NCBI GenBank assembly: GCA_963817745.1
Contig: CAWFPC010000008.1
Span: 67,009 to 131,008 of the forward strand
DNA from: an uncultured Chloroflexia bacterium
Lineage (GTDB): Bacteria > Chloroflexota > Limnocylindria > Limnocylindrales > CSP1-4
Length of the DNA stretch: 64,000 bases
Direction of reading: 5' to 3'
Of this stretch, positions 13,946 through 34,475 are shown piece by piece. Made by a program: the position numbers and the translations under genes. Position 1 is the stretch's first letter; each line of letters begins with the position of its first letter. The notes below the pieces were generated by a model, which was given only the letters and a program-made list of their open reading frames with translations, ran no database searches and was not told the origin of the DNA.

Positions 13946-15083
13946 GTGCTTGATTCGATCTCGGCGCACGGACCTGCGCGGCTACGTGACGCTGGAGGCG
14001 ACGTTCGCGCCCGGGCCGCACCTCGTGTGGGGACCGAACGCCGCGGGCAAGACGAGCCTGCTCGAGGCGATCGCCCTGCTCGGCTGGGGGCGCTCGCACC
14101 GGACGTCGGCCGACGGGGAGCTGATCCGCTGGGGCCAGCCCGTCGGGCGGGTCGAGGGCCACGTCGGTGGCGAGGTGCTGGAGGTCGCGATCACGCGCTC
14201 CGGGGCCGACGGCAGCGGCGGGCGCAAACGGATCCGGATGAACGGCGTCGGCCGGCGCTCGAGCGTGCTGGGACGGACGCTGCGGGTCGTGCTGTTCGCG
14301 CCCGAGGAGATGCTGCTCGTCATCGGCTCGCCGTCGCTGCGGCGGACCGCGATCGACAGCCTGGCGGCCGCGCGTTCGCCGGCCTACGCAGACGATCTCG
14401 CCACGTACGGGCGGACGCTCCAGCAGCGCAACAGCCTGCTGCGCGCCATCCGCGAGGAGACGGCGACCCGCGACCAGCTCCGGTTCTGGGACGGCTCGTT
14501 CCTCGAGACCGGCGGACGGATCGTCGAGGCCCGGCTCGCCCTGCTCGACGCGATCGCCGAGCCGCTCGCCGCGGCGCATCGCGAGATCGCCCCGGACGAG
14601 GCCGCCGACGGTCTCACGCTCCGCTACGTGACCAACGCCCCGACGCTGGCCGGCGAGACGCCGCGTGAGGCCCTGGCGCGTCGGCTCGTCGAGACGGCCG
14701 ACAAGGAGGTCTGGAACGGGGCCACGCTCGTCGGGCCGCATCGTGACGACATCGCGTTCGAGCTCGGTGGTCGCGAGCTCGCCGGGTTCGCGTCGCGCGG
14801 CCAGCAACGGACGGCGATCCTCGCCTTCAAGCTCGCCGAGCTCGACCTGCTCACCGCCCTCGACGGCCGCGCCCCGTTGCTCCTGCTCGACGACGTCTTC
14901 AGCGAGCTCGACCCGGACCGGCGGGCCCACCTCGTGCGACGGATCGCGGCGCTGCCACAGGCGTTCGTCACGACGACCACCCTCGACGACCTCGACCCGG
15001 GCCTGCGGGCCATCGCGACGACCTGGGAGGTCCGTGCCGAGCCCGATGGCGCGACCCTCACCCGCGGACCGGGACCCGCATGA
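13946..15083 (+). CDS. recF: DNA replication and repair protein RecF; probable single-base indel in the first ~10 codons
   Basis: Walker A (GPNAAGKTSLLEAI), SMC-like signature and D-loop (LLLLDDVFSELD). The N-terminus reads VLDSIS... in one frame and ...TDLRGYVTLEATF in the next, consistent with an M-x-L-x-L-TDFR-type RecF start. Confidence 0.85.
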
Positions 15084-15100
15084 CCAGCCGGCGCCGCCCG

Positions 15101-15400
15101 ATGACGCGTGTCGGCGACCTCATCCCCGATGCCGCCCGCGCAGCTGGGCCTGGAGGACGAGCTGCGGCTGGCCCGCGCGATCGCGACGTTCGAGCGGCTC
15201 GTCGGGGAGCGCGTGCCCGCCGCGGCAGGGTCGTGCCGCGTCATCCGGCTCGAGGGGTTCGCGATCGATGTCGAGGCCGATGCGCCGATCGTCGCCCAGG
15301 AGCTGCGCCTGCGGGCGCCCGAGCTCCTGACGGCCTTCGCGAGCGCGCCGGGGGGCATCGGCGTGCGCGGAACTGCGTGTCCACGTCCGCCGCGCAGGTC
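15101..15400 (+). CDS. DUF721-family protein (RecF-associated, Zn-ribbon/RNA-binding-like); frameshifted, ends approximate
   Basis: MTRVGDLIPDAARA... followed in the adjacent frame by LGLEDELRLARAIATFERLVGERVP...RLEGFAIDVEADAPIVAQELRLRAPELL, typical of DUF721 downstream of recF. Confidence 0.45.
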
Positions 15401-15501
15401 CCCGCGTATAATCCCCGACACCTGCCAGCCATCTCGGGGCGAGTGTCCGCCGATCCGGCTTGGATCGTCCCGTCGCCCGTCCATATCTACGAGACGCCCG
15501 C

Positions 15502-17769
15502 ATGGCCGCCCGACTCCAGTTGAAGCTCGGTCTCGTCGCCGAGCATGACCGCCTCCCCGACTCGCCCGACACGCTCGTCGTCGTCGAGCCGAGCGTGGGT
15601 TCGGTCGCGCGCTCCAAGGGGCACCTCTACCTGCTCGTGACCTCGCGGGTGAGCTCGCGCCACGCGCTCGAGGCGACGCGCCTCGCCGCCGAGACCATCC
15701 GCAACGAGTACTACTACGACGAGTCCGCCGGGATCCGGGTCTGCCTCCAGAAGGCGATCGCCACGGCCAACAAGCGACTGATCCACCAGGCCGACCGGCT
15801 CGGACTGCGCTCGCCCGAGGGCAACGGCCCGATCGGCGTCGGCGTCGCGGTCGTCCGCGGCAACGAGATGTACGTCGCCACGGTCGGCCCTGCCGAGGCG
15901 TACCTGATCCGCCAGGCGCGCCTCTCGACACTGCCGGACCCGCATCGCGAACGCGGCCTGCCGTCGAGCGGCCTGGAACCCGACGTCTGGCGTGGCGAGA
16001 TCTCGGTCGGCGACTCGCTCGTGCTCGTCTCGCCCGAACATGGTCGCGCGGCTCGGGGCGGACGAGCTCAAGGACGCGATGCTCACGCTCCACCCGCAGT
16101 CCGCGATGGAGCACCTCCACCAGCGGTTCGTGGCGGCCGACGGCTCCGGGTCGCGACGGCGCGATCGCGTTCGAGGCGACCGAGGTCGCGCCGACCACGC
16201 GGGCACGGACCCTCGTCCCGGTCCGCCCGTCAGAGCCGCTTGCCGGTGCGCCGGACCGCTCGCCGATCCCGCTGGCCGACAACGTGCAGGCAGGCGCCGC
16301 CGCGCATGACCGCCGCCGCCGGCAACGCCCGGGAGGCCGCCGGCGGGGCGCTGGAACGGGTCGTGGGCCGCGTCCAGGAGCTGATGCCCCGGCGCAAGCC
16401 GGCCTACCGCCGGGTGACGCCGCTGGCGTCCCGGCGCGAGACGCAGCGCCGGGCGGCGGTCGCCGCACTCGCGCTCATCACCGTGGTCGGCGGGCTGGGT
16501 CTCGCGGTCTACGCCTTCGGCGGTACCGACCAGGAGGGCGCGATCGGGTCGGTCAACGCCGGCCAGGCCGCGCTCGACAAGGCGCGCGCCAACCTGGCCG
16601 AGGTGTCGGGCCCCGGGATCGACCTCATCGAGGACGACCCGAACGAAGCCAGGAACCTGCTGACCGAGGCATACGAGGAGCTCGAGAAGGCCGAGACCGC
16701 CAAGGTCAGTGCGCGGGTCGTCGATCCGTTGCGGGCCAAGGTCATCGACGGGCTGGACCAGCTGGCCGGCGTGGTGCCCATCACCTCCGCCGAGCTGTTC
16801 GCCTTCACCCCGGAGGAGGGCGCCGAGCCGTTCGACCTGCACGCCCTGGTCCGCGGGCCTGACGGCGCCCCATACGTCATCGATGGCACGACCAAGACCG
16901 TCTACCGGGTGGACCTCAAGCGCAAGAAGGCGACGGCCGTGTTGCGCGCGGGCCGCGAGGTCGGCGACACGAAGGTCGCGGAGCCGCGCTTCCTCGCCGT
17001 CGGCGGACGCGACCTGCTCATCCTCGATGCGAAGAACGTGTTGTGGCGCTGGCGCCCGTCCAACGACGCGGGCAAGGGCACGCTCGGCAAGGTCAGCGTC
17101 AACGGATCGCGCGGCTGGGGCGACGACATCGCCGCCATCGGGACGTTCCTGCGAGACGTCGATCGCGGGCTCTACAACCTCTACGTCGTCGACCCCTCGG
17201 AGCAGCAGATCCGGGCGTACTCCCCGGCCGCGGATGGCGGCGGCTTCCCGGCCGCGGCGACCGGCTGGCTGGCCACCGCCCGTGCCGTCGACCAGATGAA
17301 GTCGCTCTACATCGATGGCGACATCTTCATCGCCGAGGGCGGTCTCCTCGAGCGGTTCACCCGCGGCAAGAACGACGGCTGGGACGCCGGGCTGCCCGAC
17401 GACGTCCTCCTGCGCCCGGCGCCGGTGTTCAGCCTGCTGACGGGCTGGGGCGGGCAGCGCGAGGGCATCGTGTACGGCTACGACAAGCCGAACGAACGGG
17501 TCGTCGCCGTCGACAAGGCCAACGCCGAGTACGTCGCCCAGTATCGCCTCGACAGCCCGGCCTCCGAGGACGGCCCGAGCTGGGACGACCTGCGCGGGAT
17601 GTACGTCGTCCCCGGCGTCGACGAGGCGCCCCCGACCGTCTTCTGGGTGTCGCCGACGGGGCTGCACGAGGCGACGCTCGGGTCGCTCGAGACACCCGAC
17701 GCGAGCGGCGCCCCATCGGGCGACCCGGACGCGAGCGCGGAAGCCTCGGCCGAGCCGACGACGCCGTAG
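15502..17769 (+). CDS. PstP-like Ser/Thr phosphatase: cytoplasmic PP2C domain, one TM helix, large extracytoplasmic domain; at least 2 frame changes (~16030, ~16290)
   Basis: PP2C-like region GHLYLLVTSRV...GVGVAVVRGNEMYVATVGPAEAYLIR with its end (LVLVSP..MVARLGADELKDAMLTLHPQ) in the adjacent frame. Then a TM helix (AAVAALALITVVGGLGLAVYAF) and a ~430-aa extracellular domain. Confidence 0.6.
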   Translation: MAARLQLKLGLVAEHDRLPDSPDTLVVVEPSVGSVARSKGHLYLLVTSRVSSRHALEATRLAAETIRNEYYYDESAGIRVCLQKAIATANKRLIHQADRLGLRSPEGNGPIGVGVAVVRGNEMYVATVGPAEAYLIRQARLSTLPDPHRERGLPSSGLEPDVWRGEISVGDSLVLVSPEHGRAARGGRAQGRDAHAPPAVRDGAPPPAVRGGRRLRVATARSRSRRPRSRRPRGHGPSSRSARQSRLPVRRTARRSRWPTTCRQAPPRMTAAAGNAREAAGGALERVVGRVQELMPRRKPAYRRVTPLASRRETQRRAAVAALALITVVGGLGLAVYAFGGTDQEGAIGSVNAGQAALDKARANLAEVSGPGIDLIEDDPNEARNLLTEAYEELEKAETAKVSARVVDPLRAKVIDGLDQLAGVVPITSAELFAFTPEEGAEPFDLHALVRGPDGAPYVIDGTTKTVYRVDLKRKKATAVLRAGREVGDTKVAEPRFLAVGGRDLLILDAKNVLWRWRPSNDAGKGTLGKVSVNGSRGWGDDIAAIGTFLRDVDRGLYNLYVVDPSEQQIRAYSPAADGGGFPAAATGWLATARAVDQMKSLYIDGDIFIAEGGLLERFTRGKNDGWDAGLPDDVLLRPAPVFSLLTGWGGQREGIVYGYDKPNERVVAVDKANAEYVAQYRLDSPASEDGPSWDDLRGMYVVPGVDEAPPTVFWVSPTGLHEATLGSLETPDASGAPSGDPDASAEASAEPTTP

Positions 17770-17783
17770 CCTGGCGGGGCGCC

Positions 17784-18527
17784 ATGATCCCGCTGCGCGA
17801 CGCCAACCCGACGCGGCGCCAGCCGTTCGTGACGATCGGGCTCATCCTGACCAGCTTCGTGGTCTTCGCGTGGGAGCTCGGGCTGCTGGCGAGCGGCGGA
17901 TCCGCGGCCCTTGACGCCTTCATCACGACCTACGGCGTCGTGCCCGCGGAGCTGACGGCCGCGTGGGCCGCCGGGGACGTGGCGTCGTTCGAGACGGTGA
18001 CCCTGATCACGAGCCAGTTCCTGCATGGCGGCTGGCTGCACGTCCTGGGCAACCTGCTGTTCCTGTGGATCTTCGCCAACAACATCGAGGACCGACTGGG
18101 GCGGGTCGCGTTCCTCGGCTTCTACCTCGCGGGCGGCGTGGTGGCCGGGCTGGCCCAGGTGTGGATCGATCCGACATCGACCGTCCCCACGATCGGGGCA
18201 TCGGGCGCGATCGCCGCCACCCTCGGCGCGTACCTCGTCCTGTTCCCGCGAGCCCGCATCACCTCGCTCGTGTTCCTCGGGTTCTTCTACCAGCTCATCG
18301 ACGTGCCGGCCGTCATCGTCCTCGCCTTCTGGTTCGTGCTCCAGCTCATCGACGGGATCGCCACGATCGGGGCGACCGAGATGGGCGGCGGGATCGCCTT
18401 CTTCGCCCATATCGGCGGGTTCGTGTTCGGGGCGGTGGTCGCCGGCATCATCCGCTGGTGGTCCGGCCGGTCGCGGGGCGGGCGGATGACCGCGGGCGAG
18501 CCGGCCGAGCCGGCGGCCGTGGGATAA
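17784..18527 (+). CDS. Rhomboid-family intramembrane serine protease
   Basis: Six TM helices, GASGAI motif (catalytic Ser) and a FAHIGGF-type catalytic His motif. Confidence 0.85.
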   Translation: MIPLRDANPTRRQPFVTIGLILTSFVVFAWELGLLASGGSAALDAFITTYGVVPAELTAAWAAGDVASFETVTLITSQFLHGGWLHVLGNLLFLWIFANNIEDRLGRVAFLGFYLAGGVVAGLAQVWIDPTSTVPTIGASGAIAATLGAYLVLFPRARITSLVFLGFFYQLIDVPAVIVLAFWFVLQLIDGIATIGATEMGGGIAFFAHIGGFVFGAVVAGIIRWWSGRSRGGRMTAGEPAEPAAVG

Positions 18528-18534
18528 TCACGCC

Positions 18535-19089
18535 ATGGACGACGGACTGATCGAGATGGTCGTCGAGAGCGTTCGGGTCCACATGCTCTCCAGCCGCCAC
18601 GTCGTCATCCTCAAGGAGACCGGTCGCGAGCGGTATCTGCCGATCTGGATCGGGCAATGGGAGGCGAGCTCGATCGCGATGCGCCTCCAGGGACTGACGC
18701 CCGAGCGCCCCCTCACCCACGACCTGTTCGCGAGTGCGCTCGAGGCGCTCGACGCCCGGGTCGCCCGGGTCGTGATCTCCGAGCTCGCCGACGAGACGTT
18801 CCACGCGCGGCTGTTCGTCGAGCGTGACGGCCACACCGGGGAGGTCGACGCGCGCCCGTCCGATGCGCTCGCGCTGGCGGTTCGGGTCGGGGCGCCCATC
18901 TTCGCCTCGGAAGCCGTGCTCGAGCAGGCGGGCCTGGGCGCTGACGGCGGCCTTGGCGAGGACGGCGAGGAGACCGGTGGCTATCTCGAGACCACGGGCG
19001 AGCAGATCGTCGACGAGCGACTCGATGTCTTCCGCGAGTTCGTGAACTCGCTCGACGTGGATCCGGACGCCGACAGCCGGACGGGCTAG
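18535..19089 (+). CDS. Bifunctional nuclease family protein (BFN / DUF151)
   Basis: MVVESVRVHMLSSRHVVILKETGRERYLPIWIGQWEASSIAMRLQG...RPLTHDL...DARPSDALALAVRVGAPIF is the DUF151 signature. Confidence 0.75.
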   Translation: MDDGLIEMVVESVRVHMLSSRHVVILKETGRERYLPIWIGQWEASSIAMRLQGLTPERPLTHDLFASALEALDARVARVVISELADETFHARLFVERDGHTGEVDARPSDALALAVRVGAPIFASEAVLEQAGLGADGGLGEDGEETGGYLETTGEQIVDERLDVFREFVNSLDVDPDADSRTG

Positions 19090-19870
19090 CCCTCGAGCGT
19101 CTCGCCGAGGATCGGCCCGCCGCGCCGCAGCGCCCGGCCGCGGTTCACCCACATCCGCAGCCGAAGCCACCAGAAGTCGCGCACCGCGCGCAGGATCACG
19201 GTCGGTTTCGCACCCGTCGGCGATCCGGCGGTCCGCGGGTAATGCGGGACTCCGACCTCGACCACCGAGGCGCCGGCCGCCCGCAGCTTGATGAGCAGCT
19301 CGGCGGAGAAGAACGCGCCGCCCGATTCGACGTGCAAGGCCCTCGAGCGCCTCGCGCCGGAAGAGCTTGCACGCGCAGTCGACGTCCGTGACGCGGAGGC
19401 CGAAGAAGATGCGGTTCGCCAGCCGGTAGGCGCGGGCGTAGATCGTCCGGATGAGCGGGTCGGCGCGCTTGATCCGGAAGCCGGCGACGACGTCGGGCCG
19501 GTCTGTCGGCGGCGAGACGCGCCGTCAGCCGGCCGAGGTCCGCGACCTTGAACTGGCGATCCCCATCCGTGAACGCGACGAGGTCGAAGCGTGCGGCCCC
19601 GAACCCCGAGCGCAGGGCCGCGCCGTACCCGAGGTTGGTCGGATGATGGACCGCTCGCACGATGCCCGGATGCCGTGCGGTCAGCTCGTCCGCGATGGCC
19701 TGGGTCCGGTCGCGCGACCCGTCGTTGACCGCGATGATCTCGAACGTGTCGGCGAGCGCCGGCAGCGCCGCGAGCGCCTCCTCCACCAGCCCTTCGAGGT
19801 TGGCCTCCTCGTTGTGCGCCGGAAAGAAATACGACAGGCGCGGGACCCGGGCAGTCGTCGGCTCGGTCAC
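19086..19870 (-). CDS. GT2-family polyprenol-phosphate mannose synthase-like glycosyltransferase (Ppm1/Dpm1-like); 2 frame changes
   Basis: N-terminal GT-A fold LSYFFPAHNEEANLEGLV...IIAVNDGSRDRT...DLVAFTDGDRQF. C-terminus (...GGAFFSAELLIKLRAAGASVVEVGVPHYPRTAGSPTGAK...) is in a second frame. Confidence 0.7.
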
Positions 19871-21471
19871 GCGCCCGCCTCACGCGGGCCGACGACGCGC
19901 GTCAGGCCGGAGGCGTCCTGGCCGTCGAGGAAATCGAGGACGTAGCGCTCATCGAGGAGGCGCAGCTCCGCCGGGTCGAGGCGGATCACGTACACGGGAC
20001 GCACGGGCAGGTTGGCGTCGATCACGTCGGTGAGCTCTCCAAGGTGTTCGTCGAGGCGGGTGCGATCGTCGACGATGGCCACGTCCGGCCGTCGACCCTC
20101 GACATGCTGTGCGTACCATAGCGGCGTCGAGTAACTCCACCACGACAGGACCATCGCGTCGGGCGCCATCTCGAGCAGGGCGTTGTCGACCCAGCGCGCC
20201 GCCGTGTCGTCCCGCGACCGGTCCACGCGGGCGTGGCGGGCCTCCAGCGCCAGGGCGGTCGGAGCGAGCAGGATCACCGCGAGGGCCACGGCGAGCAGCA
20301 CCTGCGCGGCGTCGGGGCCACCGCTGCGCACCCTCGCGGGCCACCCGCGCTTCCTCGTCGCTGGTGGGGTCGGCCCCGAGCGCCGCGCCGACCGCGTCGA
20401 TCGCGAGCGCGCCGAGGATCGCCAGCCAGGTCCAGCCGATGAAGACCGGCACGAGGTAGTAGCGCTCGATATCGGCGTTGGTGTAGGACGCCGCGAAGAA
20501 GCAGGTGATCAGGGCGGCCGAGCCGGTCAGCAGGGCGTAGCGGGGCCGGCGGAGGATCGCCGCCACGAGGCCGAGCGGGACGAGCGCGGCGAGCGGTCCG
20601 AACGCCACGACAGCGCGGTTCGCGAGGTCGGCGAGCTTGCCGCTGAGGTCGCCGAACGGATCCACGAGACTGCCGCGGAACTGCTCGGCGAGGACGATGT
20701 ACCAGAACCCGTCCCAGGTCTGCGGCGTGCCGTACACGAGCGGTGCTCGGAACGGTCCGGCGCGCAGGGGCAGCTCCAGGAAGACGAGCACCACGGTGAT
20801 CGCCAGGGCGCCGGCGCAGGTGGCCACGAATCGCGGGCGACGCACGATCCCGGGCTCCACGGCCACGACGTACAGCGCGACCGGGAGTGCGAGGAGGAGC
20901 GTCAACGAGTGATTGCCGACGGCCAGCCCGAACACGACCGCCGCAGCGACAGGAATCGTTCGGCGCGGCGCGTGCCGGCAGTGTCGGTCGTGTCGCCCAT
21001 GCCCGCCGGGCCGGTCCCGCCGGTCGCGCGAGCGTCCTCCCAGGCCACGAGCAGGCGCACCAGGACGACGACGAGCAGCAGGTGGAGCGCGTGTGCCTCC
21101 GCATGCGTGCCGATGGACCACACGACCTCGGTGAAGGCCAACCCGAGCCCCGCCACCACGCCGAGCACCGTGGACCGCGTCAGGGCCCGGACGAGATCGA
21201 CCGTGATCCCGGCGGCCGCCGCGACGCACAGCGCCGCCAGGAGGTTCATCCGGAGCGCCGGCTCGCCGAAGGGCGACAGGACGATCGATGCGAGCCACGC
21301 CAGCAGCACATACGTCGGATACCCGGTGGGATGGGCGGTCCCCATGAGCGGGCCGACCACCTGCAGCTCGCCGGTGTCCCAGAACCCAACGCCCGGCATC
21401 AGCGCGACGCGCACGCCGATGAAGGCGACGATCGCGACCGCGACCGCCGGGATCGATCGTCGCGGATTCAC
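19867..21471 (-). CDS. DUF2723 (TMEM260-like) polytopic membrane protein, putative GT-C mannosyltransferase; frameshifted
   Basis: WDTGELQVVGPLMGTAHPTGYPTYVLLAWL motif plus multiple TM helices, spread over three overlapping frames (ORFs 20902-21516, 19949-21298, 19867-20331). Confidence 0.6.
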
Positions 21472-21475
21472 GACC

Positions 21476-22925
21476 TCACCACCCGAGCAGCACGCCCCAC
21501 GCCACGCCCCATGCATTGACGGCCACGGAGATGATCACGAGGCCGATGCCGAGCGGCATGGCCCAGCGGCGGCCACCCGCGACCAGGGCCTCGAACCCGA
21601 TGGCCACGAGGAGCAGGGCGAACGGCACGGCGTCGTTGCTGAACCGATAGCCGAACTGGACCCAGCCCTGGCTGAAGTGCATCAGGTTGACGATGACCAC
21701 GGCCAGGACCGCGAGCACCGCGCCGCTGACGAGCCGGCTCTGGCCGTAGCGACGGAGCGCCGGGATCAGCAGCAGGAACGCGGGGCTCGTCAGGAGCACG
21801 CTCGTGCCGATGTCGCGTGGCACGGCGAGCGGACAGTCGATATCGAATAGGCCACGTGCGGCGCCAGGTTCGGTGCACACCGGGTCGTCGTGGACCCCCA
21901 GTGAGTCGGGCAACGCCGTCGGGAACACGTCGGGCAGGGCGAGGAACATGATCGCAGCGTTCTGGGGCAGGTAGCGCGGATCCTCGACGGACCACGACGG
22001 CTCGTAGCCGAGGGCCGTGTAGGCGCGTGACTCGAGCTGGTAGAGGTAGTCGTAGGCCGGATGCAACGGATGCCCGGCCGTCACGAGGTTGTAGCCGAGC
22101 AGCAGCGCGACCGGGATGACCGCCCCGAGCCCGGCGGACCAGCTCCGCCGCCACCACGTCCCACCCGCGCCCACGAGCATGAAGAATGGAGCGGCGAAGA
22201 CCACGGTCAGTCGTGCGGTGCACGCGAGTCCGAACAGCAGGCCGATCAGGAACTGGCGCCGATCGATCGCCAGGCGGGATCGCCACGGCGTGGGGGCGGC
22301 GAGCGCGTCGGCGTCGACAGGGTCATGCGGCGCGTCGGTGCCTGCATCGACCTCGTCGTACGGCGGCTCGTCATCGGCTGCCGCAGGGTCCGCACGGATC
22401 GCGAGACCGACGGCGAGCATCGTCAGGCCGACGGCAACGATGTGCGCCTGGTACCACGTCGTGGCGAGCTGGGCGGTGTACCAGAAGACCGTCCCGAAGG
22501 CGAAGAAGATCGTCGTCGCGAGCCGCACCGGCGCTCGGACCGGGAGCCGACCGAGCATCCACCAGCAGATCGCGACGTCCGCCGCGGCAAGGATCGTGAA
22601 CAGCGTCTGATCGTCGGTGGCGAGACCCCAGATCGCCACGAACGGGACGAGCAGCAGCGCCGGGAGGGGCGGGAAGGGGAGCAGGCCGCGCGACACGCCA
22701 TCGGGTCGATACGACAGGCAGGACGTCCTGGAAGAAGGCGTTGCCGAACGAACCCGCCGTCCCGGCGACCGGGTAGCGGATCGCCGCGTGGCCCTCGAGG
22801 AATGCCGCGGCCTGCCACACGAAATGGTCGTAGTAGCGGTCGGTCCGGGTCGCGAGGTAGATCGAGCCGGCCGCCACGGCCAACAGCACGCCGGCGAGGA
22901 TGACCAGCCGGCGCTCCGTCCGGGC
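21476..22925 (-). CDS. GT-C-fold membrane glycosyltransferase (PMT_2 / ArnT-like); frameshift near 22680
   Basis: About 12 TM helices. N-terminus MDARTERRLVILAGVLLAVAAGSIYLATRTDRYYDHFVWQAAAFLEGHAAIRYP lies in one frame and the body (...LLPFPPLPALLLVPFVAIWGL...) in another. Confidence 0.55.
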
Positions 22926-22997
22926 ATCGAGCCACCCGTCCGCCGCGGGGTCCGCCGGGCGACCCTGTGCTACGCTCCGATCCACCTTCCCACGCTC

Positions 22998-24488
22998 ATG
23001 CAGGAGCCGCTTATCCCGGTGACTGGCCCCGTACCCGGTGGGTCCGAGCGAGGCACGGGCGCGCCGTCGCGGTCGACCGGGACGCAGGGAGCCGTTGGCG
23101 CGATCCTGATCATCCTCGCGCTCGGGCTCGCCCTCCGCCTCATCATCGCATACCTGCTCCCAGGCTCCGGGTTCGAGGTCGACCTCCAGGCGTTCCGCTT
23201 CTGGGCGCACAACCTCGCCACGGAAGGCCTGCACGGCTTCTACGAGCGCGATTTCTTCCACGACTACACGCCCGGCTACCTGTACGTCCTGTGGCTGGTC
23301 GGCCTGGCCGCGCAGGCGATGGAGAGCGGGGTCGGCGATCTGATCAAGATCCCGCCGATCCTCGCCGACCTCGCGATCGGGTGGCTCGTCTGGTCGATGG
23401 TCCGCGAGCTGGGTGGGCGCGATCGCCTCGCCCTCGCTGCCGGCGCGGTCGCGGTCTTCAATCCGATCTCGTGGTTCGACAGCGTCGTGTGGGGGCAGGT
23501 CGATGCCTTCGGGGTCGTCTTCGTCCTGCTCGCGTTGCGAGAGCTCTGGCGTGACCGCCCGGAACGCGCGGCGATCTTCACGGTCATCGCCGCGATCATC
23601 AAACCGCAGCTCGGCATCCTGGTCCTGCTCGTCGCGGTCGTCACGATCCGGCGGGCTCTGTGGCCGACCGGCGGCGGTGGACGGCAGGTCAGCGCGCAGC
23701 CGTGGCGGATCGTGACGACCGGTCTCGCAGGCTTCCTCACGGCGGTCGTCGTGTGCCTGCCGTTCGGGCTGTCGGTCATCGAGTTCACCGCGGAGGCGCC
23801 CTTCGTGCGCTCCGGCCTCGTCGAGCAGATCGCCGTGGCGGGTGGCGGCTACCCGTACGTGACCGTGAACGCGTACAACCCCTGGGCGTTGATCCCCTCC
23901 GAGACCGGCGAGACGCTGGCCAACGCCGGCGCCTGGGTGTGCGATGCGGCCGGGATGCCGGCTGCCACCTGCGGCGCCGGCGTCGCGGTGTTCGGCGCCA
24001 TCCCGGCGGTCGTCCTGGGCGCCGTCCTGCTGGTCCTCGCGATGGGGCTGATCCTGTGGATCGCGGCACGCCACCCCGACCGGCTGACGCTGCTGGTCGC
24101 CCTCGCGCTGCTCGCCCTCGCCTTCTTCGTCGTCCCGACGCGCGTCCACGAGCGCTACGGCTTCCCGTTCTTCGCCATGGGGGCGATCCTCTTCGCCGTG
24201 TCCGGTCGCTGGCGGATCGCGTACGTCGTCCTGTCGATCGCGACGTTCGCGAACATGTACGTCGTCCTGACCACGCTCTACCCCGACAACCCATCGGTCG
24301 AGGATTGGCTCGGGATCGGCGGTCTCCTCCGCTCCGAGCTCGGCGTGACGACGGTCGCCCTGGTCCACGGTGCCGTCTTCATCTGGGGCGCTGGCGCAGC
24401 TCCGCGATCGGGGCCCGGCAACGGCTGGCCGACGAGCTCGTCGCTGCCAGCGGCCCGATCCGGCGCGATGGCCGGCGGGCCGCGCTGA
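22998..24488 (+). CDS. GT-C-fold membrane glycosyltransferase (DUF2029/GT87-like mannosyltransferase); C-terminus uncertain
   Basis: MQEPLIPVTG..., polytopic, with RLIIAYLLPGSGFEVDLQAFRFWAHNLATEGLHGFYERDFFHDYTPGYLYVLWLVGL. Transcribed divergently from the three minus-strand glycosyltransferases. Confidence 0.55.
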   Translation: MQEPLIPVTGPVPGGSERGTGAPSRSTGTQGAVGAILIILALGLALRLIIAYLLPGSGFEVDLQAFRFWAHNLATEGLHGFYERDFFHDYTPGYLYVLWLVGLAAQAMESGVGDLIKIPPILADLAIGWLVWSMVRELGGRDRLALAAGAVAVFNPISWFDSVVWGQVDAFGVVFVLLALRELWRDRPERAAIFTVIAAIIKPQLGILVLLVAVVTIRRALWPTGGGGRQVSAQPWRIVTTGLAGFLTAVVVCLPFGLSVIEFTAEAPFVRSGLVEQIAVAGGGYPYVTVNAYNPWALIPSETGETLANAGAWVCDAAGMPAATCGAGVAVFGAIPAVVLGAVLLVLAMGLILWIAARHPDRLTLLVALALLALAFFVVPTRVHERYGFPFFAMGAILFAVSGRWRIAYVVLSIATFANMYVVLTTLYPDNPSVEDWLGIGGLLRSELGVTTVALVHGAVFIWGAGAAPRSGPGNGWPTSSSLPAARSGAMAGGPR

Positions 24489-24744
24489 TCGACGCCGCGG
24501 GATCCGGGTCGCCGCCGGCCGAGGATCGGACGTGACCGGCATCGTCACCGCTGCCCGAGCCGTCCCCGCCGTCGCCCGCCGTGGTCGGCGATCGCGAGCG
24601 GGGCTGCCGGGGCTGGGTCGAGCATGCGCCGTGTCGGCTCCGCTGGCGCTGGTGCCCGCGCCCGCCGGATCTGCCGGATCCGCCGCGGCCGTGTCCGGCG
24701 CGTCGGCCGCGACGATCGCCGCCGCGCCGGCGCCGATCGTCCGG

Positions 24745-27700
24745 ATGCCCAGCTGGGCGCCGACCACGACCTTCGCCGACCTCGGATTCGTCGGCTGGTT
24801 CCGCGCTCGCTTCCGCGATCAACCGATCCGGCCCGACCGCAGCCGGCTGCTCGTCGGCGAGCGTGGCGGCCGCTTCGACCGCCTCGACGTGTGGATCCTC
24901 ATCGTCCTCCTGCTGGCCACGTTCGGCCTTCGCCTGTTCCGGCTGGCGGAGCCCTACCAGATGCACTTCGACGAGGTCTATCACGCACGGACCGCGACCG
25001 AGTTCCTGCAGTCGTGGCGCTACGGCATCGACAAGGAGATCTACGAATGGACGCATCCGCACCTGGCCAAGTACGCGATGGCGGGCGGGCTCGTCCTCTG
25101 GGGCGCGGACCATGTCGATGGCGAGAGCGAGCTCGGCGTGCCGGCACGCGCGGCCATCATCGAGCCACGCCGCGACGATCCCGAGGCGCCCGGCGACCGC
25201 GCCGGTGAGCGTCTCCATATCGCGACCGGCGACGAGATCCGGACCTTCGACCTGCGCACCCGCGAGCACGTCGGCACCATCGCGGCGGTCGGCTCGTCGG
25301 CGCTCGCCTACGACCAGGAGGCGCTCCAGCTCGTCGTCGGCTTCGATGACGGACGCATCGGCACCAGCGGCGTCGAGGGACTGTTCGCGGATGCGGCGTC
25401 GGGTGCCGTCCTCGACGACATCGCCGACCTTGCGGTCGTGGACCACCCGGTCCGGCACCTGCTGGTGGCCGACGGCGGGGCCACGATCATCGCCGCCTCG
25501 GACGACCAGCTGACGGCCGTCGACAGCGAGACCGGCGAGGTCCTGTTCACCGAAGGCGATGGCCGGGATCGCCGACCTGTCGGCGGGAGGCACCGGGGCG
25601 ACCATCGTGGCCGATCCGGCGGCCGTCGAGGATCCGGCGGCGGTCGCGGCACGCCTCGCCGAGATCACCGAAGGCGACGCCGCCGACCTCGAGGCGCGCC
25701 TGACGGAGGGCACCGGCGCGCAGGTCGTGCTCGGCATCCCGGGTGACAAGCTGACCCGCACCGAGCTCGACACCGCGCTGGAGGCCGGCGAGCTCGACGG
25801 GCGTCGACATCGTCGATCTCCCGCGGGTCGCCGTCGCGATGGCGGACGGCGTCACGTTCATCGATCCGACGACGGGCGGGGTCATGACCAGCATCGCGAT
25901 GGCCGGCGGCGCGCACGGGATGGCGATGATCCTGGACATCGGCGATCCGAAGCTGTACGTGACCGCCGGCGACACCGTCGAGCCGCGGTACGAGGTCGTC
26001 GCCGTCGGTGGCGACTCGGCCGTGGACGGACCCCGACACCTGCGGGCGAACACGTTGCCCGGTCTCGGCAGCCGCGTCGCGTACGACGACGCGAGCCAGC
26101 AGGTCCACATCCTGGGCCACGTGCCGGACGGCGGGGCCGACAGCCCGTGGACGGTGTATGTCATCGAGCCGCACGCGGAGGACGCGGTCTACGCGGATGC
26201 GGCCCTGCCGGTCGAGATGGAGCCGACGGCCTGGGCCATGGACGTGGAGGCGCGCTACGCCAGCGACGACCGCCAGCAGCTGCTCGTGTTCGGCGCGGAC
26301 GGCGCCAACGTGAGCATCGACGTCGGCTCGCACGCGTTCGCCTGGCGTCTGCCGGGCGTCATCGCGGGCGTGCTCATGGCCGCCTGCCTGTACCTCCTCG
26401 CCCGGATCCTGTTCCGGCGGCGGCTCGTCGCGGGGATCGTCGCCGCGCTCGTGCTGCTCGACGGGATGCTCTTCGTCCAGTCGCGGATCGGGATGAACGA
26501 CGTCTACGTCGGGCTGTTCATCATGGCCGCGTACACGGTCTTCGCCGCGGTCTGGACGGGCTGGTGGCGCGGCCGGTCCGCGTTCTGGGTGGCGATGCCG
26601 GTGATCGGCGTGCTGCTCGGTCTCGCGCTCGCATCGAAGTGGGTCGCGGCCTATGCCATCGGGGCGCTGGTGCTGTTGCTGCTCGCCCGCAGCGCCCTCG
26701 GTCGGGCGGTCGCGATCCTGGGGCTCATCGGCATCACGAGCGTCCTCGGCTACATGGCGATCAGCGTCCCGGAGGGGGAGGGGATCGGCAACCTGACGTT
26801 CCTGATCATCATGGTCGGGCTGACGCTGGTGGCGACGGTGGTCAACGTCCTCCATCCGGTCGCCTGGTCCGATGACGAGATGCGCTTCGCGCTGCTCGCA
26901 CCGGCGGCGCTCGGGTGTCCTCGTGTTCTTCGGGGCGCTCGGGACCGGTCAGCTCGATCGCGAGATCGTGCTCGGCCCGGTCACGGTGACCCCGCTGCTC
27001 GTCGGCCATCGCCCTGTCGGCGGGCTCGCTCGTCGTCTACGCGATCTTCTGGGCGAGCGGCCGGGTGGGGTTCGGGCCACTCGCGCCGCCGCCCGGCTCC
27101 GGACGACCCGATCCGCCTGCTGGAGCCGCCCGAGCCCTGCCCCGACGGCTGGCTGCGGCCGGGCTGGCTCGCCGGGCTGCCCGTGGTCTGGGCCGCCGCG
27201 TGCCTCCTGGTCGTCCCGATCGTGGTCTACGTCGTCTCGTACATCCCGTGGGCGCTGCATCGAGAACCACCAGCTCTGGGAGGGCTGGCCGGCCGGTCAC
27301 GACGGGCAGACGCTCCTGGCCCTGACGCAGCAGATGTACGGCTACCACAACGGGTTGTCCAGCGCGCACGCGGCGTCGTCGCCGTGGTGGGCGTGGCCGT
27401 TCGATCTGAAGCCCGTCTGGTTCTACCAGGACAGCTTCGCCGGGAACACGAGTGCCGCGATCTACGATGCCGGCAGCCTCGTGATCTGGTGGTTCGGGGT
27501 CGCGGCGATCGCCTTCGCCTCGATCATGGCGTACCGCCGCAAGAGCCTCGCCCTGGCGCTCATCACGGTCGGCTTCGCCGCCCAGTGGATCCCGTGGGCC
27601 CGGATCGATCGCGCCGCGTTCCAGTACCACTACTACACCGCCCTGCCGTTCCTGATCCTGGCCCTCGCCTACCTCGTCGCCGAGCTGTGGCACGGCGCGT

Positions 27701-28520
27701 CGCGCCGGACGTGGGCGATGGCCAGGATCGCGGCGGCCGTCGCGATCATCGCCCCGGCGGCGATGTGGCTGTTCTCACGGCCGCTGTGCGCGTTCGTGGA
27801 GGTCACATCGGTCAACCCGGGTTCGCAGGCGTGTCCGGCCGTGATCCCCGAGGCGGTCATCACCGTCCGCACGATCGGGCTGCTCGTCGTCGTGTTGATC
27901 GGGGCGATCGCGCTGATCCGGGCCGTGCTCGCGCTGCAGCGGCCCCCCGATCCCGATGCGCTCGACGCGGGCGGCGTGACCGCGGGTGGGCTGCGCTCGC
28001 TCGTCATCTCGGCGATCGGTGTGGCGATCGGGTTCGCCGCGGTCGCGCTGCTCCCGGACACCGCGGTCCTGACGTTGACCAGCATCCCGGTCGAGCCGAT
28101 CGCGCTCATCGTCGGCCTGCCGCTGGCGCTACCTCGCGCTGCAGGTGTTCGCCTCGCGCGACGCCCGCCGATTCGTCACGGGCTACATGGTGGCCGTGGT
28201 GGGCTGGTTCGTCGATCGTGTACCCGAACATCTCGGCGCTGCCGCTGCCGTCGGCCGTCGTGAACGCGTACCAGGGCCTGCTGCCGACCTACCTGTACGC
28301 GTTCCAGTTCCCGGTGAGCACGGCCAGCCGGGCGGTGCCCGACCCGCTGCTCAGCCCCACGCTGCTGATCCTCGCCGCGGGGATCACGGTGACCTGTCTC
28401 GTGCTCGCCTACTCCGCGTGGGTCTGGCGGCTGGCACTCGCGGAGTCGAAGGCACCGACCGGCTCCGAGGCGGGCGAGGCGGACACGCCCGACGGTCTCG
28501 CGCGCAGCGGCGGCGCCTGA
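24745..28520 (+). CDS. Giant (~1250 aa) PMT-family (GT39) protein O-mannosyltransferase with a ~430-aa beta-propeller-like insertion in loop 1 and a C-terminal 4TMC-like region; at least 4 frame changes
   Basis: TM1 and loop-1 motifs HFDEVYHARTATEF / THPHLAKY. Then repeated ~40-aa blade-like units (…LVVGFDDGRIGTSGV…LLVADGGATIIAASDDQLTAVDSETGEVLF…YVTAGDTVEPRYEVVAVGG…). Then the PMT core (LLDGMLFVQSRIGMNDVYVGLFIMAAY) and the 4TMC-type segment (SSPWWAWPFDLKPVWFYQD). Frames switch near 25560, 25840, 27240 and 28150. Confidence 0.6.
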
Positions 28521-28529
28521 GGGATCGTC

Positions 28530-29673
28530 GGCCGCGAAACCGCTCGGCAGCGTGCCGTTGGCCGCCAGGCGACGGATGACGAAGCCGTAGTACTCCTCGA
28601 CCTTGGCGGTGACGCGCGGCCAGCTGAACTCCTCCGCGCGCGCCTGGCCCGCGGCGCCCATCTGCTCGCGGAGCGCCGGGTCGCGCAGCAACCGATCGAT
28701 CGCGATCGCCAGCGGCCGCGGCTCGCGCGGCGGCACGAGCATGCCCTCGCGGTCACGACGCACGACGCCCTTGTAGCCGTGGATGTCCGACGCGACGATC
28801 GGGGTCCCGGCGGCCATCGCCTCGAGCAGCACGATCCCGAACGACTCGCCGCCGGTCGCCGGGGAGGCGTACACGTCGGCCGTCCGGAAGAGCTGGGCCT
28901 TCTCGGCGTCCGACACGCGTCCCAGGAACTCGACCTCCTGCAGCCCGCGGGTCGCGACGTAGCGCCGCGCCTCGCGCTCCTGCGGCCCGGAGCCCACGAC
29001 GAGGAGCCGCGACCCGGAGCCGGTCTTGCGCAGGATCCGGTGCGCCTTGAGCAGCGTCAGCAGGCCCTTGCGCGGCTCGTGCCGCCCGACGAACAGGACG
29101 TTGGGCGTGCCGTCCTGCCAGCGGGCGATCGGGACCGCGTTCGCGTAGCGCGCGATATCGACGCCGTTGGGGATGACCTTGTAGTCGCCGGGGAAGAACC
29201 GATCGATGAAATGCCGCGCCGCGGCGCTCACCGCGATGCGGCCGTGGAGCCGGCCCGGCGTACCCGCGCAGGGCCCGGCTGCCGAACTCGTACGACGGCG
29301 AGAAGCCCGCGAACGCGTGGAACGTGGCGATGTTGACGCTGGTCGATTCGCGCAGCAGGAACAGCGACAGGAACGGGATGAACGGCTCGTGGAAGTGCAG
29401 GACGTCGAACCGTTCGCGCTCCAGCATGTCGCCGATCTGGCCGAGGTAGCGCGGCGAGAACGTCAGCGTCCCGACGGACGCGTTGATCGGCACGGAGAAC
29501 CCGACGCCGAGCCGGATGATGTCGCCCTCGGACGAGCGCTGCGGTCCGTGGCTGGCGGTGATGATCCGGACGTCGTGGCCGCGCAGGCGCAGGTTCTCGT
29601 ACAGGTAGCGGACGTGCTGCGCGACCCCGCCGTTCTCGGGGTAGATGTACGGGCAGACGAGACCGATCTTCAT
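28530..29673 (-). CDS. GT4-family glycosyltransferase, PimA-like mannosyltransferase; frameshift near 29230, 3' end approximate
   Basis: N-terminal half MKIGLVCPYIYPENGGVAQHVRYLYENLRLRGHDVRIITASHG. C-terminal half has GRHEPRKGLLTLLKA...ASPATGGESFGIVLLEAMAAGTPIVASDIHGYKGVV, the GT4 EX7E region. As read, the ORF would run antisense into the PMT gene, so the true stop is probably near 28530. Confidence 0.7.
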
Positions 29674-30508
29674 GCGTCGTCCAGCCGGTCGGTGCGCCGC
29701 GGCCGGCCCCGCGGGCTCGTAGCGCGGCGGTCGCACGCGCCCACCCGGGTAGCCGTGGTCGCGCCCGGTGCCGTCCCGCCGCAGCCGGCCGCCGACCTCG
29801 TCGCGTGCATCCAGCGCGCGTTTGCGCAGCTGCCGCCCGAACACCCCGACCTGGCCGGCCGTGCCGTGGAACGAGCCACCGTGCGTCGTCGCGCCCGTCT
29901 CGATCGCCCGCCGAAGGTCGGCCGCCGTCCGGCCGTCGAAGGTCGTCCAGCCCGCTGCCGATCGCGTCGAGGGCGTGGGCGTCGCTGTTCCCGACCCGCG
30001 CCAGGCCATGCTGCTCGGCGAAGCGCACGACGCGCGCGTGCCATGGGCGCCCGAGCGCGGTCGGGTTGAACGCCTCGATCGCGTCGGGGTGGACGTCGGG
30101 ATCCGGGTCGTCGAGCAGGCGGCGGATGACCCAGCCCTGGGCGCACAACGGGAACGGGACGAGCGGATGCGCCGGGATCGCGAGCCCGCCGGCCGCATGC
30201 ACCGCGGCGATCGTCGAACGCAGCGAGCGGTACGGCCGGATCGGACGATCGAGGTAGAGCGCCAGCAGGTGCCCGCCCAGGGTCGTCACCTCCTCGCCGA
30301 CGACGACCTCCACGCCGAGCCCGCGATCGGCCGCGATCGCCTGCGCGGCGAGGGCCGCATCGATCCGTTCGTGGTCGGTGATGGCGATGACGTCGAGGTC
30401 GCCGCGGGCCGCGACGTGGTCCAGGATCGCGACGACGTCGGCGGTCCCGTCGGACGCGACGGTGTGGATGTGGAGATCGGCCCGGCCCGGGCGGTCGGGG
30501 TCGCTCAT
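29670..30508 (-). CDS. PHP-domain metal-dependent phosphoesterase (TrpH/YciV-like)
   Basis: MSDPDRPGRADLHIHTVASDGT...IAITDHE...GNSDAHALDAIGSG. After a late frame change the +2 frame ends ...RLDDA* with TGA overlapping the pimA-like ATG (ATGA). Confidence 0.7.
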
Positions 30509-31483
30509 GCGACGCGGGCCTCCGGCGCCGCTGCCGGCGCCTCCGCCTCGGCCGCCTCGAGATCGGGCCAGATCGGGAAGAAGACCGCCCACCACTGCTC
30601 GGGCGCGTCCTCGACGATGCGCTCGAACGCACGGGCGATCGCCTCGGTCGTCGCGGTGACCCGTTCGCGGCGCTTGCCGTCGAGCGGGATGGCGATGGGC
30701 TCCAGCCGACCGCGATAGCGACCCCGACCGGCTCGCCGCACGCCGACGACGTACGCCCTGCACGTCGGCCTCGACCGCGAGCATGGCGGGCCCAAGGGGG
30801 AGCGCGGCCGGGGCGCCGAACAGCGTGGTCAGCGTCCCGCCGCCGGTGAGGTCGCGATCGCCGACCAGGCCCACGCTGCTGCCCGCCCGCAGCGCCGCCA
30901 GCAGCTCGCGGCGCGCCGCGCGGAGACCCACGATGCGGACGCCCGCGGCCCCGCGGGTCCGCACGAACCAGTCCTGCAGCCCCTGGTCGTCGATCAATTC
31001 CATCGGCGCGACCGCGCCCCCGACGCGACTCGCGAGCAGCAGCGCGGGCAGCTCGATCGCCCCGAAATGGAGGCCGACGAAGATGACCGGGCCGCCGCTG
31101 AAGGCCGCGTCGACGACGTCCGGCGTCTCGACGAGCATGAGGCGGTCGATGTCGCCTGGTCCCAGCGCCGGGGTGCGGGCGACCTCGAGGTAGTACAGCG
31201 CCGCGTGGCGGAATGCCCGTTTGACGAGTCGCTCCAGGGCTCGTGGGTCCGTCGCCGCGGCGCGGGCCGCCGCCGACCCACGCTCTCGCGCGGCGAGGTC
31301 GACCGCGACCCGGCGCAGGTTCCGGCGCGCCTGTGCCGCGCGATCGGGTGCGAACCGGTACCAGGCGTCGCCGGCGAGCTCCGCCGCACGGATGAGCGGC
31401 GCCTCGGGCAGGTGGCAGACGAGCCACGACCCGCCGATCAGCAGGCGACCGCGCAGCCACGAGCCCACGCCGCGCCGGGTCAT
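30505..31483 (-). CDS. LPLAT-family acyltransferase, PatA/HtrB-like (copy 2)
   Basis: MTRRGVGSWLRGRLLIGGSWL...VIFVGLHFGAIELPALLLA (HX4D-type motif)...PIAIPLDGKRRERVTATTEAIARAFERIVEDAPEQWWAVFFPIW. Frameshift near 30795. Confidence 0.65.
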
Positions 31484-31486
31484 GGC

Positions 31487-32514
31487 GGGCCGGGGTCCGG
31501 CGTGCCGGCCTGCATCAGGAGGCGCGCGGCGCTCGAGATCGGCCGCCTCCTCGGCGGTCGCCGGCCAGATCGGCTTGAAGCTGTACCACTGCTCCGGCGC
31601 GGCCGCGATGCTCAGCGCCAGCGCGTCGGCCATCGCCTGGCTCGCGCGCTGGAGCTCGGCCGGATCGGCCGACGTGAGGTCGATCGGTCCGGCCCAGGTG
31701 ACGCTGAACGTGCCGTCGGCGAGCCGGCGCGTCGTGACCGGGAGGATCCGCGCGCCGGTCTTGGCCGCGAGCGTGGCCGGTCCGGCGGGCAGCGTGGTCC
31801 AGGCACCGAACAGGCGGACCGGGATGCCGTCCGCGCGATAGCCCCAGTCCACGAGCAGCGCGAGCATCTCGCCGCGGCGCAGGACGTCGTAGATGCGGCG
31901 CAGGTTGCGCCAGGCGATGACGCGGACGCCCCAGGATTCGCGCTCCGCGCGCAGGTGCGCGAACAGCTCGGGGAACGACGAGTCGTCGGCGATGACGCTG
32001 ATCGGCATGCCATGGCGGGCGATGGCGGCGGCCACGGCATCGTTGTTGCCGACGTGACCCACCGAGAAGATGAGCCCGCCGCCGGCAGGGTTCCCCGTCC
32101 ACAGGCGCCGGATGTCGTCGGCGTCGATATCGGGCACCAGGGCGGCCCGCGTGTCGGGCGGAGCGCCGGCAGTCGCATGAGCTCGACGAGGTAGCGGCCG
32201 TAGCCGTAGTAGGCGCGCAGGGCGACGGCGCGCACACGTCGATCGCCCTGGGGAAGGCCCAGCACGTGGCCGAAGTTGCGATCCGACCAGTGGCGCTTGG
32301 TCCCCCAGGCGAGATAGGACGCCTGCGACAGCCGGCCGATCACGGCCGCCGCGAAGTCGGCCGGCAGCGTCTGCAGGAGCCAGGCAGTCGCCTTGTAGGC
32401 GACGACGGCGACGCGCTCGACGATGCGCGGACGCTGGCCGCCGCGGCGATGGGGTGCCTCGAGGGGCCGTTCGGGCGCCCTCGGGGCCACGCGCGGTTCG
32501 TTGCCGACGGTCAC
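31487..32514 (-). CDS. LPLAT-family acyltransferase, PatA/HtrB-like (copy 1, tandem paralogue); frameshift near 32140, 3' end approximate
   Basis: N-terminus [10 protein letters not shown]...[13 protein letters not shown]...[16 protein letters not shown]-terminal half ...[31 protein letters not shown]...[41 protein letters not shown]...[12 protein letters not shown]. Confidence 0.6.
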
Positions 32515-33753
32515 GACGCCGCGGCGGTCTCGACCTTGGCGCGAGCGCCCGCGAGCCTGCGGAGCTTGCGCTTCTCCGGCTTCTCGGTGCCCACCAGCGT
32601 CTCGGAGTCATCGCCGCGGATGAACGCTTCCACCCGGTTGAACGCGATGTCGTCGTGGATCTGGTGCGGCGGGCTCTTCATGAAGTACGCCGAGGGCGCC
32701 ACGAGCGTGCCGCTCAGGCCGCGATCCAGCCCGAGCTTGAGGCAGCGGATGGCGTCCGTGATGACGCCCGCGCTGTTGGGGCTGTCCCAGACCTCGAGCT
32801 TGAGCTCCGCGTTGAGCGGCACGTCCCCGAAGGTCGTGCCCTCCATCCGGATGTAGCACCACTTGCGATCGAGCAGCCACGGCACGTGGTCGCTGGGGCC
32901 GACGTGGACGTCGTCGGGGTCGAGCTCGTAATCGAGCATCGAGGTGACCGCGTTGGTCTTGGAGATCTTCTTGGACTCGAGTCGCTCGCGTTCGAGCATG
33001 TTGAGGAAGTCGGTGTTGCCGCCGAAGTTGAGCTGGTACGTCCGGTCGAGGCGGACGCCGCGATCCATGAACAGGCGGGTCAGCACGCGGTGGCTGATCG
33101 TCGCGCCGACCTGGCTCTTGATGTCGTCGCCGATGACCGGCAGGCCGGCCGAGGCGAACCGCCGCTGCCAGTACGGCTCGCGACCGATGAACACCGGGAT
33201 CGCGTTGACGAAGCCCGACACCCGCGGCCAGCGCCTGCTCCGCGTACCACTTGGTCGCCTCCTCGCTGCCGACCGGCAGGTAGGAGACCATGACGTCGAC
33301 CTCGCGCTCCTTGAGGATGCCGACGATGTCGGCCGTCTCGCCCGGCGCCTTCTCGATGATCTGGCTGAGGTACTTGCCGAGACCGTCGTGGACCATGCCG
33401 CGCTCCACGGTCACCCCGGTCCGCTTGACCTTGTGGAAGGTGTACGTGTTGTTCGGCTTCGTGTAGATCGCCTCGGCGAGGTCCTTGCCGACCTTGTTCT
33501 TGTCGATGTCGAAGGCGGCGACGAAGTCGATGTCGCGGACGTGGTAGCCGCCGAGGTTGACGTGCATCAGCCCGGGGACGAAGTCGTCGTCCGCGGCATC
33601 CTCGTAGTAGTAGCGCCCCTGGACGAGGCTGCTCGCGCAGTTGCCGACGCCGACGATCGCGACGCGGATCTTGCCGTCGCCGCGTCGGGCGGAGCCCGCC
33701 CAGGTGTTCGACGGCGTCGCGCCGTTCTTGCCGTTGCTGCCGTTCTTGCTCAC
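32511..33753 (-). CDS. ino1: myo-Inositol-1-phosphate synthase
   Basis: [27 protein letters not shown]... is the hallmark Ino1 NAD-binding N-terminus. The C-terminal half (...[28 protein letters not shown]...) is in a second frame (shift near 33220). GTG start overlaps the pgsA stop (GTGA). Confidence 0.85.
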
Positions 33754-34472: not shown

Positions 34473-34475
34473 GAG

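Follow-up and report, generated by a model that had tools for sequence, protein, structure and literature searches.

How many genes, and what kind of enzyme, lie behind an unusually large protein O-mannosyltransferase (PMT) encoded in the DNA of an uncultured bacterium? The stretch analysed here, the window, comprises 64 kb of contig CAWFPC010000008.1 (assembly GCA_963817745.1, positions 67,009–131,008), and all coordinates given below are positions within it; the feature under study consists of the plus-strand open reading frames (ORFs) of one glycosylation locus together with the flanking genes. To our knowledge, bacterial PMTs have so far been viewed as small stand-alone enzymes. A first-pass annotation of the window described a divergent five-gene locus, in which a plus-strand gene for a DUF2029/GT87-like GT-C transferase is followed by a gene for a PMT of ~1250 amino acids (aa) with a beta-propeller-like insertion. 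These two plus-strand ‘genes’ are almost certainly one ORF (22998–28520, plus strand), which is interrupted in the window by about 11 frameshifts and encodes a protein of about 1,800 aa. In this protein an N-terminal GT-C_B (GT87-like) module is joined by a linker to a PMT/GT39 module that carries an inserted, predicted beta-propeller.

With a G+C content of about 72%, the window yields mechanical ORF lists that are unreliable, and the locus was read by comparison with relatives. An intact homologue of 1,790 aa (P0001) served as the reference for collinear mapping and hydropathy; the proteins of an intact syntenic locus (L002) were mapped onto the window by tblastn; the 120 best homologues formed the set for counts of length, insert size and motif conservation, and 84 related genomic loci formed the set for ORF integrity and neighbourhood. 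When 24370–28560 was read in three frames, the PMT-like protein ran on from frame to frame, giving a stitched product of 1,258 aa. This query retrieved more than 1,300 homologues, the best of which are 61–68% identical over its whole length (68% over 100% for the top match). Most of them are about 1,780–1,860 aa long, that is, they have about 530 aa more N-terminal sequence than the stitched query. By tblastn and three-frame reading, P0001 maps collinearly onto 23019–28517 through 11 frame changes (3>1>2>1>2>3>1>2>3>1>2>3). Among the best homologues, 110 of 120 are 1,405–1,862 aa long, and both modules lie in one ORF in 73 of the 84 loci (median stop-to-stop length 1,847 codons); in these loci and proteins the GT39 module is thus physically coupled to a second GT-C module by covalent fusion. 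In the exceptional loci, which come mostly from the ‘MFD’ series of metagenome-assembled genomes (MAGs), the two parts adjoin with their frames overlapping, or a break lies elsewhere in the ORF.

The apparent end of the upstream plus-strand gene, a stop at 24488, is very probably an artefact, since a motif of the homologues (‘WALxQLR...RxRLAxxLxAAGP’) carries on across two frame changes at this point. Some tblastn alignments ran through the linker in frame 3 and crossed the stop; these were discounted as low-complexity artefacts. The fusion of the GT87-like and PMT parts, as seen in the P0001 mapping, the homologue lengths and the related loci, reduces the locus from the five genes first described to four. 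A length of ~1250 aa holds for the PMT part (about 1,260 aa when stitched), but this is only the C-terminal part of a chain of about 1,800 aa. Correction of the frames left the PMT and the propeller within one chain.

About 25 frameshifts were located by tblastn with the L002 proteins between 19.1 and 39.6 kb (19086–39627), spread over 12 consecutive genes, and in a third-position GC (GC3) frame plot the coding frame switches repeatedly within apparent single genes. They look like sequence errors, not gene decay, because 12 consecutive genes are affected, including that for inositol-1-phosphate synthase (Ino1), while identity stays high and GC3 stays above 0.85 in every frame segment. It is very improbable that the shifts are genuine, and that the locus in the source organism is a group of pseudogenes that lost function not long ago, or of fragments that are translated one by one. 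Such a reading would draw on the sheer density of about 25 frame changes per 20 kb, 11 of them within the fused gene, and on the five genes directly upstream (13971–19080), which adjoin the shifted region and contain no shifts. It would also draw on the junctions, which lie away from long homopolymers; these were sought there as a sign of long-read error and none was found. Nevertheless, every gene over 20 kb is hit, even the well-conserved Ino1 (94% identical to homologues in one segment) and PimA (88–92%), and further signs of decay are absent. The near-uniform +1 direction, common to about 22 of the 25 shifts, resembles a systematic technical error, and similar breaks occur in some related long-read metagenome assemblies; the contrast with the five unshifted genes looks like an uneven error rate within one contig. 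Given the size of the protein and these frameshifts, automatic annotation of error-prone assemblies would often split or truncate the fused protein.

The PMT module opens with its first transmembrane (TM) helix and the loop-1 motifs (24883–25104, plus strand): TM1 occupies 24883–24939, the DE motif 24970–24975 and the HPHLAK motif 25054–25071. The longer motifs FDEVYHAR (24967–24990) and THPHLAKY are invariant or nearly so among the homologues, with the D and the E present in 120 of 120. They align with FDEVHFGK...HPPFAK of yeast Pmt4, placing the catalytic Asp-Glu just after TM1, at the start of extracytoplasmic loop 1. The Pfam family PF02366 matches the window fragment with 41 bits and the intact P0001 with 35.7 bits (gathering cutoff 22.7). 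The remainder of the module, from TM2 onward (26331–28520, plus strand), contains the PMT_4TMC region recognised by Pfam (PF16192, 64–67 bits, cutoff 32.4), which aligns to yeast Pmt4 and to a second PMT structure. Hydropathy of P0001 indicates two extra TM helices before loop 5 (P0001 1246–1370, window ~26900–27260) and about five more after the 4TMC region (P0001 1551–1760, window ~27830–28450); the extra helices and the propeller together account for the unusual size of the protein. Against NF058602, the NCBIfam equivalog for the characterised actinobacterial Pmt, the score is 34.2 bits where the cutoff is 800, and orthology with that enzyme is not supported.

Between the loop-1 motifs and TM2 lies an insert of about 408 aa (25105–26330, plus strand). 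Like the DE motif, which precedes it by about 30 residues, it lies in extracytoplasmic loop 1, at a site that corresponds in yeast Pmt4 to a short stretch of variable sequence after the HPPFAK helix and before TM2. When the insert was deleted in silico, the Pfam PMT match became unbroken (profile positions 3–199) and its score rose from 35.7 to 58.1 bits. The site proposed at the outset, between the DE/HPPLxK motifs and TM2, is therefore borne out exactly, both by the deletion and by the alignment with Pmt4, for an insert of about 410 aa. Its length is conserved among the 120 homologues (433–464 aa). The mean frequency of the majority residue per column is 0.69 in the insert, 0.86–0.88 in the flanking catalytic regions and 0.60 in the linker, which is the least conserved part. 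An AlphaFold2 model of the insert, built on a 40-sequence alignment, has a pLDDT of 88.9 and a pTM of 0.86, so that the insert is predicted to be folded and not disordered. The model contains about 30 beta-strands in four-stranded sets and a helical subdomain of about 60 residues (three helices, ~25560–25800); the number of blades, read from the secondary structure, is seven or eight. A Foldseek search of the PDB with this model gave more than 1,250 matches at E<1e-3, with TMq up to 0.58, and nearly all of the best 50 listed are beta-propellers, of the WD40 type or another (for example Tup1, RACK1, Sqt1 and BamB). On the strength of the model, the insert is a folded beta-propeller within extracytoplasmic loop 1 of the PMT. 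An exhaustive profile search with the propeller gave 845 matches, of which the 150 listed were all close family members or fragments and uninformative on distant propellers such as Rv3212.

The N-terminal module (22998–24390, plus strand) has about 10–12 TM helices and a GT-C_B fold with a weak likeness to GT87. In the sequence alignment, D55 and D82 are invariant just after its TM1. Its neighbours by fold are ALG6, ALG3, GPI mannosyltransferase I (PIG-M) and PimE, the last of which is among the top five; sequence and profile searches of the PDB with the module gave no matches. The raw upstream ORF has weak GT87 and PIG-U signals only in Pfam, while weak matches to PF09594 (GT87) occur in 37 of 50 family members, with a best E of 1.5e-6. 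The initial call of a DUF2029/GT87-like GT-C transferase thus had the fold class right, but the GT87 assignment is below threshold and there is no separate gene. The linker that follows (24391–24882, plus strand) is a low-complexity, Arg/Pro/Ala-rich segment that is predicted to be cytoplasmic, and it contains three frameshifts as well as the apparent stop. In P0001 the linker is about 108 aa long with 15 K/R, and this K/R-rich stretch, together with the positive-inside pattern of a hydropathy scan, assigns the propeller and the two catalytic loops to the extracytoplasmic side.

The closest known parallel to this arrangement is found in mycobacteria. There protein O-mannosylation is started by the PMT (GT39) and continued by the elongating GT87 enzyme PimE, with polyprenyl-phosphate-mannose as the donor for both (2025 review, PMC12757957). 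A mycobacterial Pmt complex has been described by pulldowns and AlphaFold3 (bioRxiv, 16 July 2026, 10.64898/2026.07.15.738315), in which Pmt (Rv1002c) is accompanied by the apparently inactive GT87-family protein Rv0051, the periplasmic eight-bladed propeller Rv3212 and the small DivIVA-like Rv1209; Rv3212 is predicted to sit directly over the Pmt active site. Both systems combine a GT39 enzyme with a DE motif, a second GT-C protein of GT87 type and a propeller on the extracytoplasmic side. In the present family, however, the parts form one polypeptide with the propeller spliced into PMT loop 1, whereas Rv3212 is a separate protein; the partner module has an invariant Asp in loop 1, while the catalytic residues are reportedly absent from Rv0051; and no DivIVA-like component was identified. 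The two systems also belong to different phyla, Chloroflexota here, and the likeness of the propeller to Rv3212 is one of fold and probable position. The mycobacterial prediction offers an independent parallel for the suggestion, made in the first-pass annotation, that the propeller could recognise substrates in the manner of a MIR domain. The separate-subunit complex is already known, though only just described; what is new here is the single-chain form.

Comparison with other systems separates the shared features from the distinctive ones. GT39 enzymes of Paenibacillus are fused to GT87 (UniProt V9WAU2; 10.64898/2026.07.15.738315) and so also have a GT87-type and a GT39 module in one chain, but no propeller insertion is mentioned for them. 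Eukaryotic Pmt1–Pmt2 and Pmt4 (6p25, 9e61) share the GT39 fold, the loop-1 DE, the 4TMC region, the pairing of GT-C modules and a soluble domain, which in eukaryotes is lumenal and close to the active site and here probably lies close to it as well. Where the fused protein has a propeller in loop 1, however, they carry a MIR domain, a beta-trefoil, in loop 5, and their partner is another GT39 rather than a GT-C_B module. The actinobacterial Pmt, Rv1002c, is likewise a bacterial GT39 and uses polyprenyl-phosphate-mannose; it is about 520 aa long and has no large periplasmic domain, whereas the fused protein has about seven more TM helices and the propeller. In the literature on Limnocylindria glycosyltransferases, Chloroflexi phosphatidylinositol mannosides (PIMs) and GT39 with GT87, the triple architecture of GT39, GT87-like and propeller parts in one chain was not found described.

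The fused gene, which encodes a three-module glycosyltransferase of the inner membrane, is typical of Limnocylindria (Chloroflexota). When one genome per GTDB species was scanned with the insert alignment as query, a relative of the propeller insert was found encoded in 179 species-level genomes. Of the best 80, all but one carry a Chloroflexota MAG label, mostly that of Candidatus Limnocylindrales/Limnocylindria; an actinobacterial origin of the locus was rejected on this ground. Limnocylindria genomes are small, with a G+C content of about 69% (PMC10608941), which fits the window. The closest related locus is only about 76% identical to the window in DNA sequence, and the source species is thus not among the scanned relatives.

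Three genes on the minus strand diverge from the fused gene. A GT2 polyprenyl-phosphate-sugar synthase of the Ppm1/DPMS/ArnC/GtrB-like kind (19086–19870, two frameshifts; PF00535, 80 bits) follows a TMEM260-like (DUF2723) GT-C transferase (19867 to ~21474, two frameshifts; PF11028, 62 bits, cutoff 24.2), and both were present in the original description. The best PDB sequence matches of the GT2 are ArnC (E=8e-14), an archaeal Dol-P-Man synthase (2e-9) and GtrB. An intact homologue of the TMEM260-like protein matches the human TMEM260 structure 9rql over residues 13–447 (phmmer, E=1.2e-20); the bacterial protein has 511 aa against 729 residues in the solved human chain, and it is the GT-C core that matches. 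The stop of the TMEM260-like gene overlaps the start of the GT2 gene by 4 nt, which is consistent with the translational coupling that had been proposed for the minus-strand genes, as far as this pair is concerned.

The third minus-strand gene (21476 to ~22985) encodes a polytopic membrane protein of about 465–500 aa with no assigned family, one frameshift near 22690 and an uncertain start. Its L002 homologue aligns with it by tblastn at 72–79% identity in two frames. In the ORF at 21476–22927 (483 aa) the N-terminus is out of frame owing to the shift near 22690, and ATG 22927 is not the start; the 72-bp shared promoter region at 22926–22997 that had been derived from it is incorrect, and the gap between the divergent genes ranges from 12 bp, if the start is GTG 22985, to about 117 bp. 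Sequence and profile searches with this gene returned no Pfam family and no PDB match, and hhalign gave the 465-aa protein probabilities of 0.1–1.1% against GT87-like and TMEM260-like profiles; its sole family match is NF047440, at 23 bits against a cutoff of 200. The GT-C membership given to it earlier could therefore not be shown, and its GT-C-like layout is putative. An earlier picture of four GT-C mannosyltransferase families clustered with their donor synthase survives in part: a synthase and several GT-C-type modules do lie together, but with one gene unclassified, GT87 below threshold and mannose not established, it was overstated. This divergent set is also variable among relatives (L017–L022, L035, L038, L050 and others), some of which are missing the TMEM260-like, the 465-aa or the GT2 gene, while the fused gene and the operon on its other side are constant.

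That operon (28412–34865, minus strand, located by tblastn) converges on the fused gene and overlaps it with its 3' end by about 110 nt. It encodes a helix-turn-helix regulator, PIP synthase, Ino1, two PatA-like acyltransferases, a PHP phosphatase and PimA, and has the look of a complete starter pathway for PIM synthesis. The PimA homologue matches the structures 2gej and 4n9w over its full length at E=4e-63. From this operon it would seem that Limnocylindria produce glycolipids of the PIM type, a class known above all from Actinobacteria. The mechanical ORF list had placed here a 1,127-aa ORF (29228–32611, minus strand) that is not a gene; it is a spurious open frame, produced by high G+C and frameshifts, that crosses parts of PimA, the PHP phosphatase and both acyltransferases.

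What, then, might the fused protein do? Our preferred reading, held with slightly better than even confidence and built by analogy, is that it would be a single-chain counterpart of the mycobacterial Pmt complex, O-mannosylating proteins of the cell envelope. The divergent GT2 would load a sugar, most likely mannose, onto polyprenyl phosphate at the cytoplasmic face of the membrane; after flipping, the PMT module would pass it on to Ser/Thr residues in exported proteins of the envelope. The propeller would act as an acceptor-selecting lid over the DE site, and the N-terminal module either as a structural partner like Pmt2 or as an elongating mannosyltransferase, as PimE is in mycobacteria. From the comparisons above we infer mannose as the sugar, protein as the acceptor, a propeller that caps the active site, and a correspondence of the propeller and the partner module to Rv3212 and Rv0051. 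A conserved three-part fusion in a distant phylum is in itself ‘Rosetta-stone’ evidence that the parts work together, and gives independent support to the July 2026 proposal. If true, the machinery, and probably protein O-mannosylation with it, extends to Chloroflexota. As a single chain, the fused protein is a convenient target for structural and biochemical studies of acceptor choice by bacterial PMTs. A bolder version is put forward tentatively, at clearly less than an even chance: GT39, a second GT-C and a propeller lid would form an ancient, obligatory unit of protein O-mannosylation common to Actinobacteria and Chloroflexota. Here it would be kept as a single-chain holoenzyme, with a propeller homologous to Rv3212 and a partner that is still an active, chain-elongating mannosyltransferase.

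Several observations weigh against protein O-mannosylation by a Pmt-like complex. By sequence, the PMTs in the PDB match in the 4TMC region only (E about 1e-4), so that the PMT module looks like a distant GT39 relative whose acceptor could differ. The N-terminal module is structurally nearer to ALG6 and ALG3 than to PimE (GT87, 9dm5), and PF09594 stays below its 25-bit threshold in the window ORF (17.7 bits) and in the P0001 module (23.6 bits). The position of the propeller over the active site is deduced from the point of insertion, not from a full-length model, and activity, acceptor and sugar would pass to members of this family by analogy. The supporting paper is a recent preprint (10.64898/2026.07.15.738315). 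Finally, the constant neighbour of the fused gene is the PIM operon, with which a glycolipid acceptor accords at least equally well. The main rival reading, conceivable if rather unlikely, is that PIMs are extended to a lipomannan-like lipoglycan by the fused protein together with the other membrane transferases encoded at the locus, which would use polyprenyl-phosphate-mannose at the outer face of the membrane, with the PMT-like module acting on glycolipid and the propeller binding the growing glycan. The operon, which the first-pass annotation had not seen, is the strongest evidence for this alternative: it lies beside the fused gene in 76 of the 84 loci, its PimA matches the solved enzyme at E=4e-63, and its acyltransferases and PIP synthase find their best NCBIfam matches in the PIM acyltransferase and PIP synthase models, both under cutoff. 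Moreover, GT87/PimE-type enzymes are the mannosyltransferases of PIMs, PimE is among the top structural neighbours of the N-terminal module, and the PMT module is no more than a distant relative of the protein mannosyltransferases characterised so far. Nevertheless, as far as is known, every characterised GT39/PMT enzyme acts on Ser/Thr of proteins, and the PMT module retains its 4TMC region as well as the DE and HPxLAK motifs. The fused gene and the operon are convergent and are not co-transcribed; the origin-proximal region from recF to an MFS transporter is syntenic in these small genomes, and the adjacency may therefore merely reflect conserved gene order. The triad of GT39, GT87-like and propeller parts, for its part, mirrors a complex that mannosylates protein.

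The sugar itself is the second point at which protein O-mannosylation can be challenged. Another lipid-linked sugar (glucose, N-acetylhexosamine or one of aminoarabinose type) might serve a different envelope glycosylation built on PMT-like and TMEM260-like scaffolds, which we regard as improbable. By sequence, the GT2 best matches ArnC, the undecaprenyl-phosphate Ara4FN transferase, and PpgS, with Dol-P-Man synthase ranked below; all its NCBIfam scores are far under the equivalog cutoffs, and such scores cannot tell the sugar specificity of a GT2. Among the genes of the locus, none was identified as belonging to the GDP-mannose pathway. On the other hand, GT39, TMEM260, GT87-like and PimA enzymes are mannose enzymes wherever they have been characterised.

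The wider surroundings of the locus are also conserved. The whole region adjoins recF in the window and follows dnaN–recF in relatives. Three plus-strand genes precede the glycosylation locus: one for a conserved 755-aa protein with no Pfam family (15502–17772), then one for a rhomboid protease (17784–18452) and one for a BFN-domain bifunctional nuclease (18538–19080). Relatives always have these genes in the interval from recF/DciA to the glycosylation locus. The whole 64 kb yielded no tRNA genes; a full-length tmRNA that ARAGORN missed is recognised by Rfam at 3464–3839 on the plus strand (117.6 bits).

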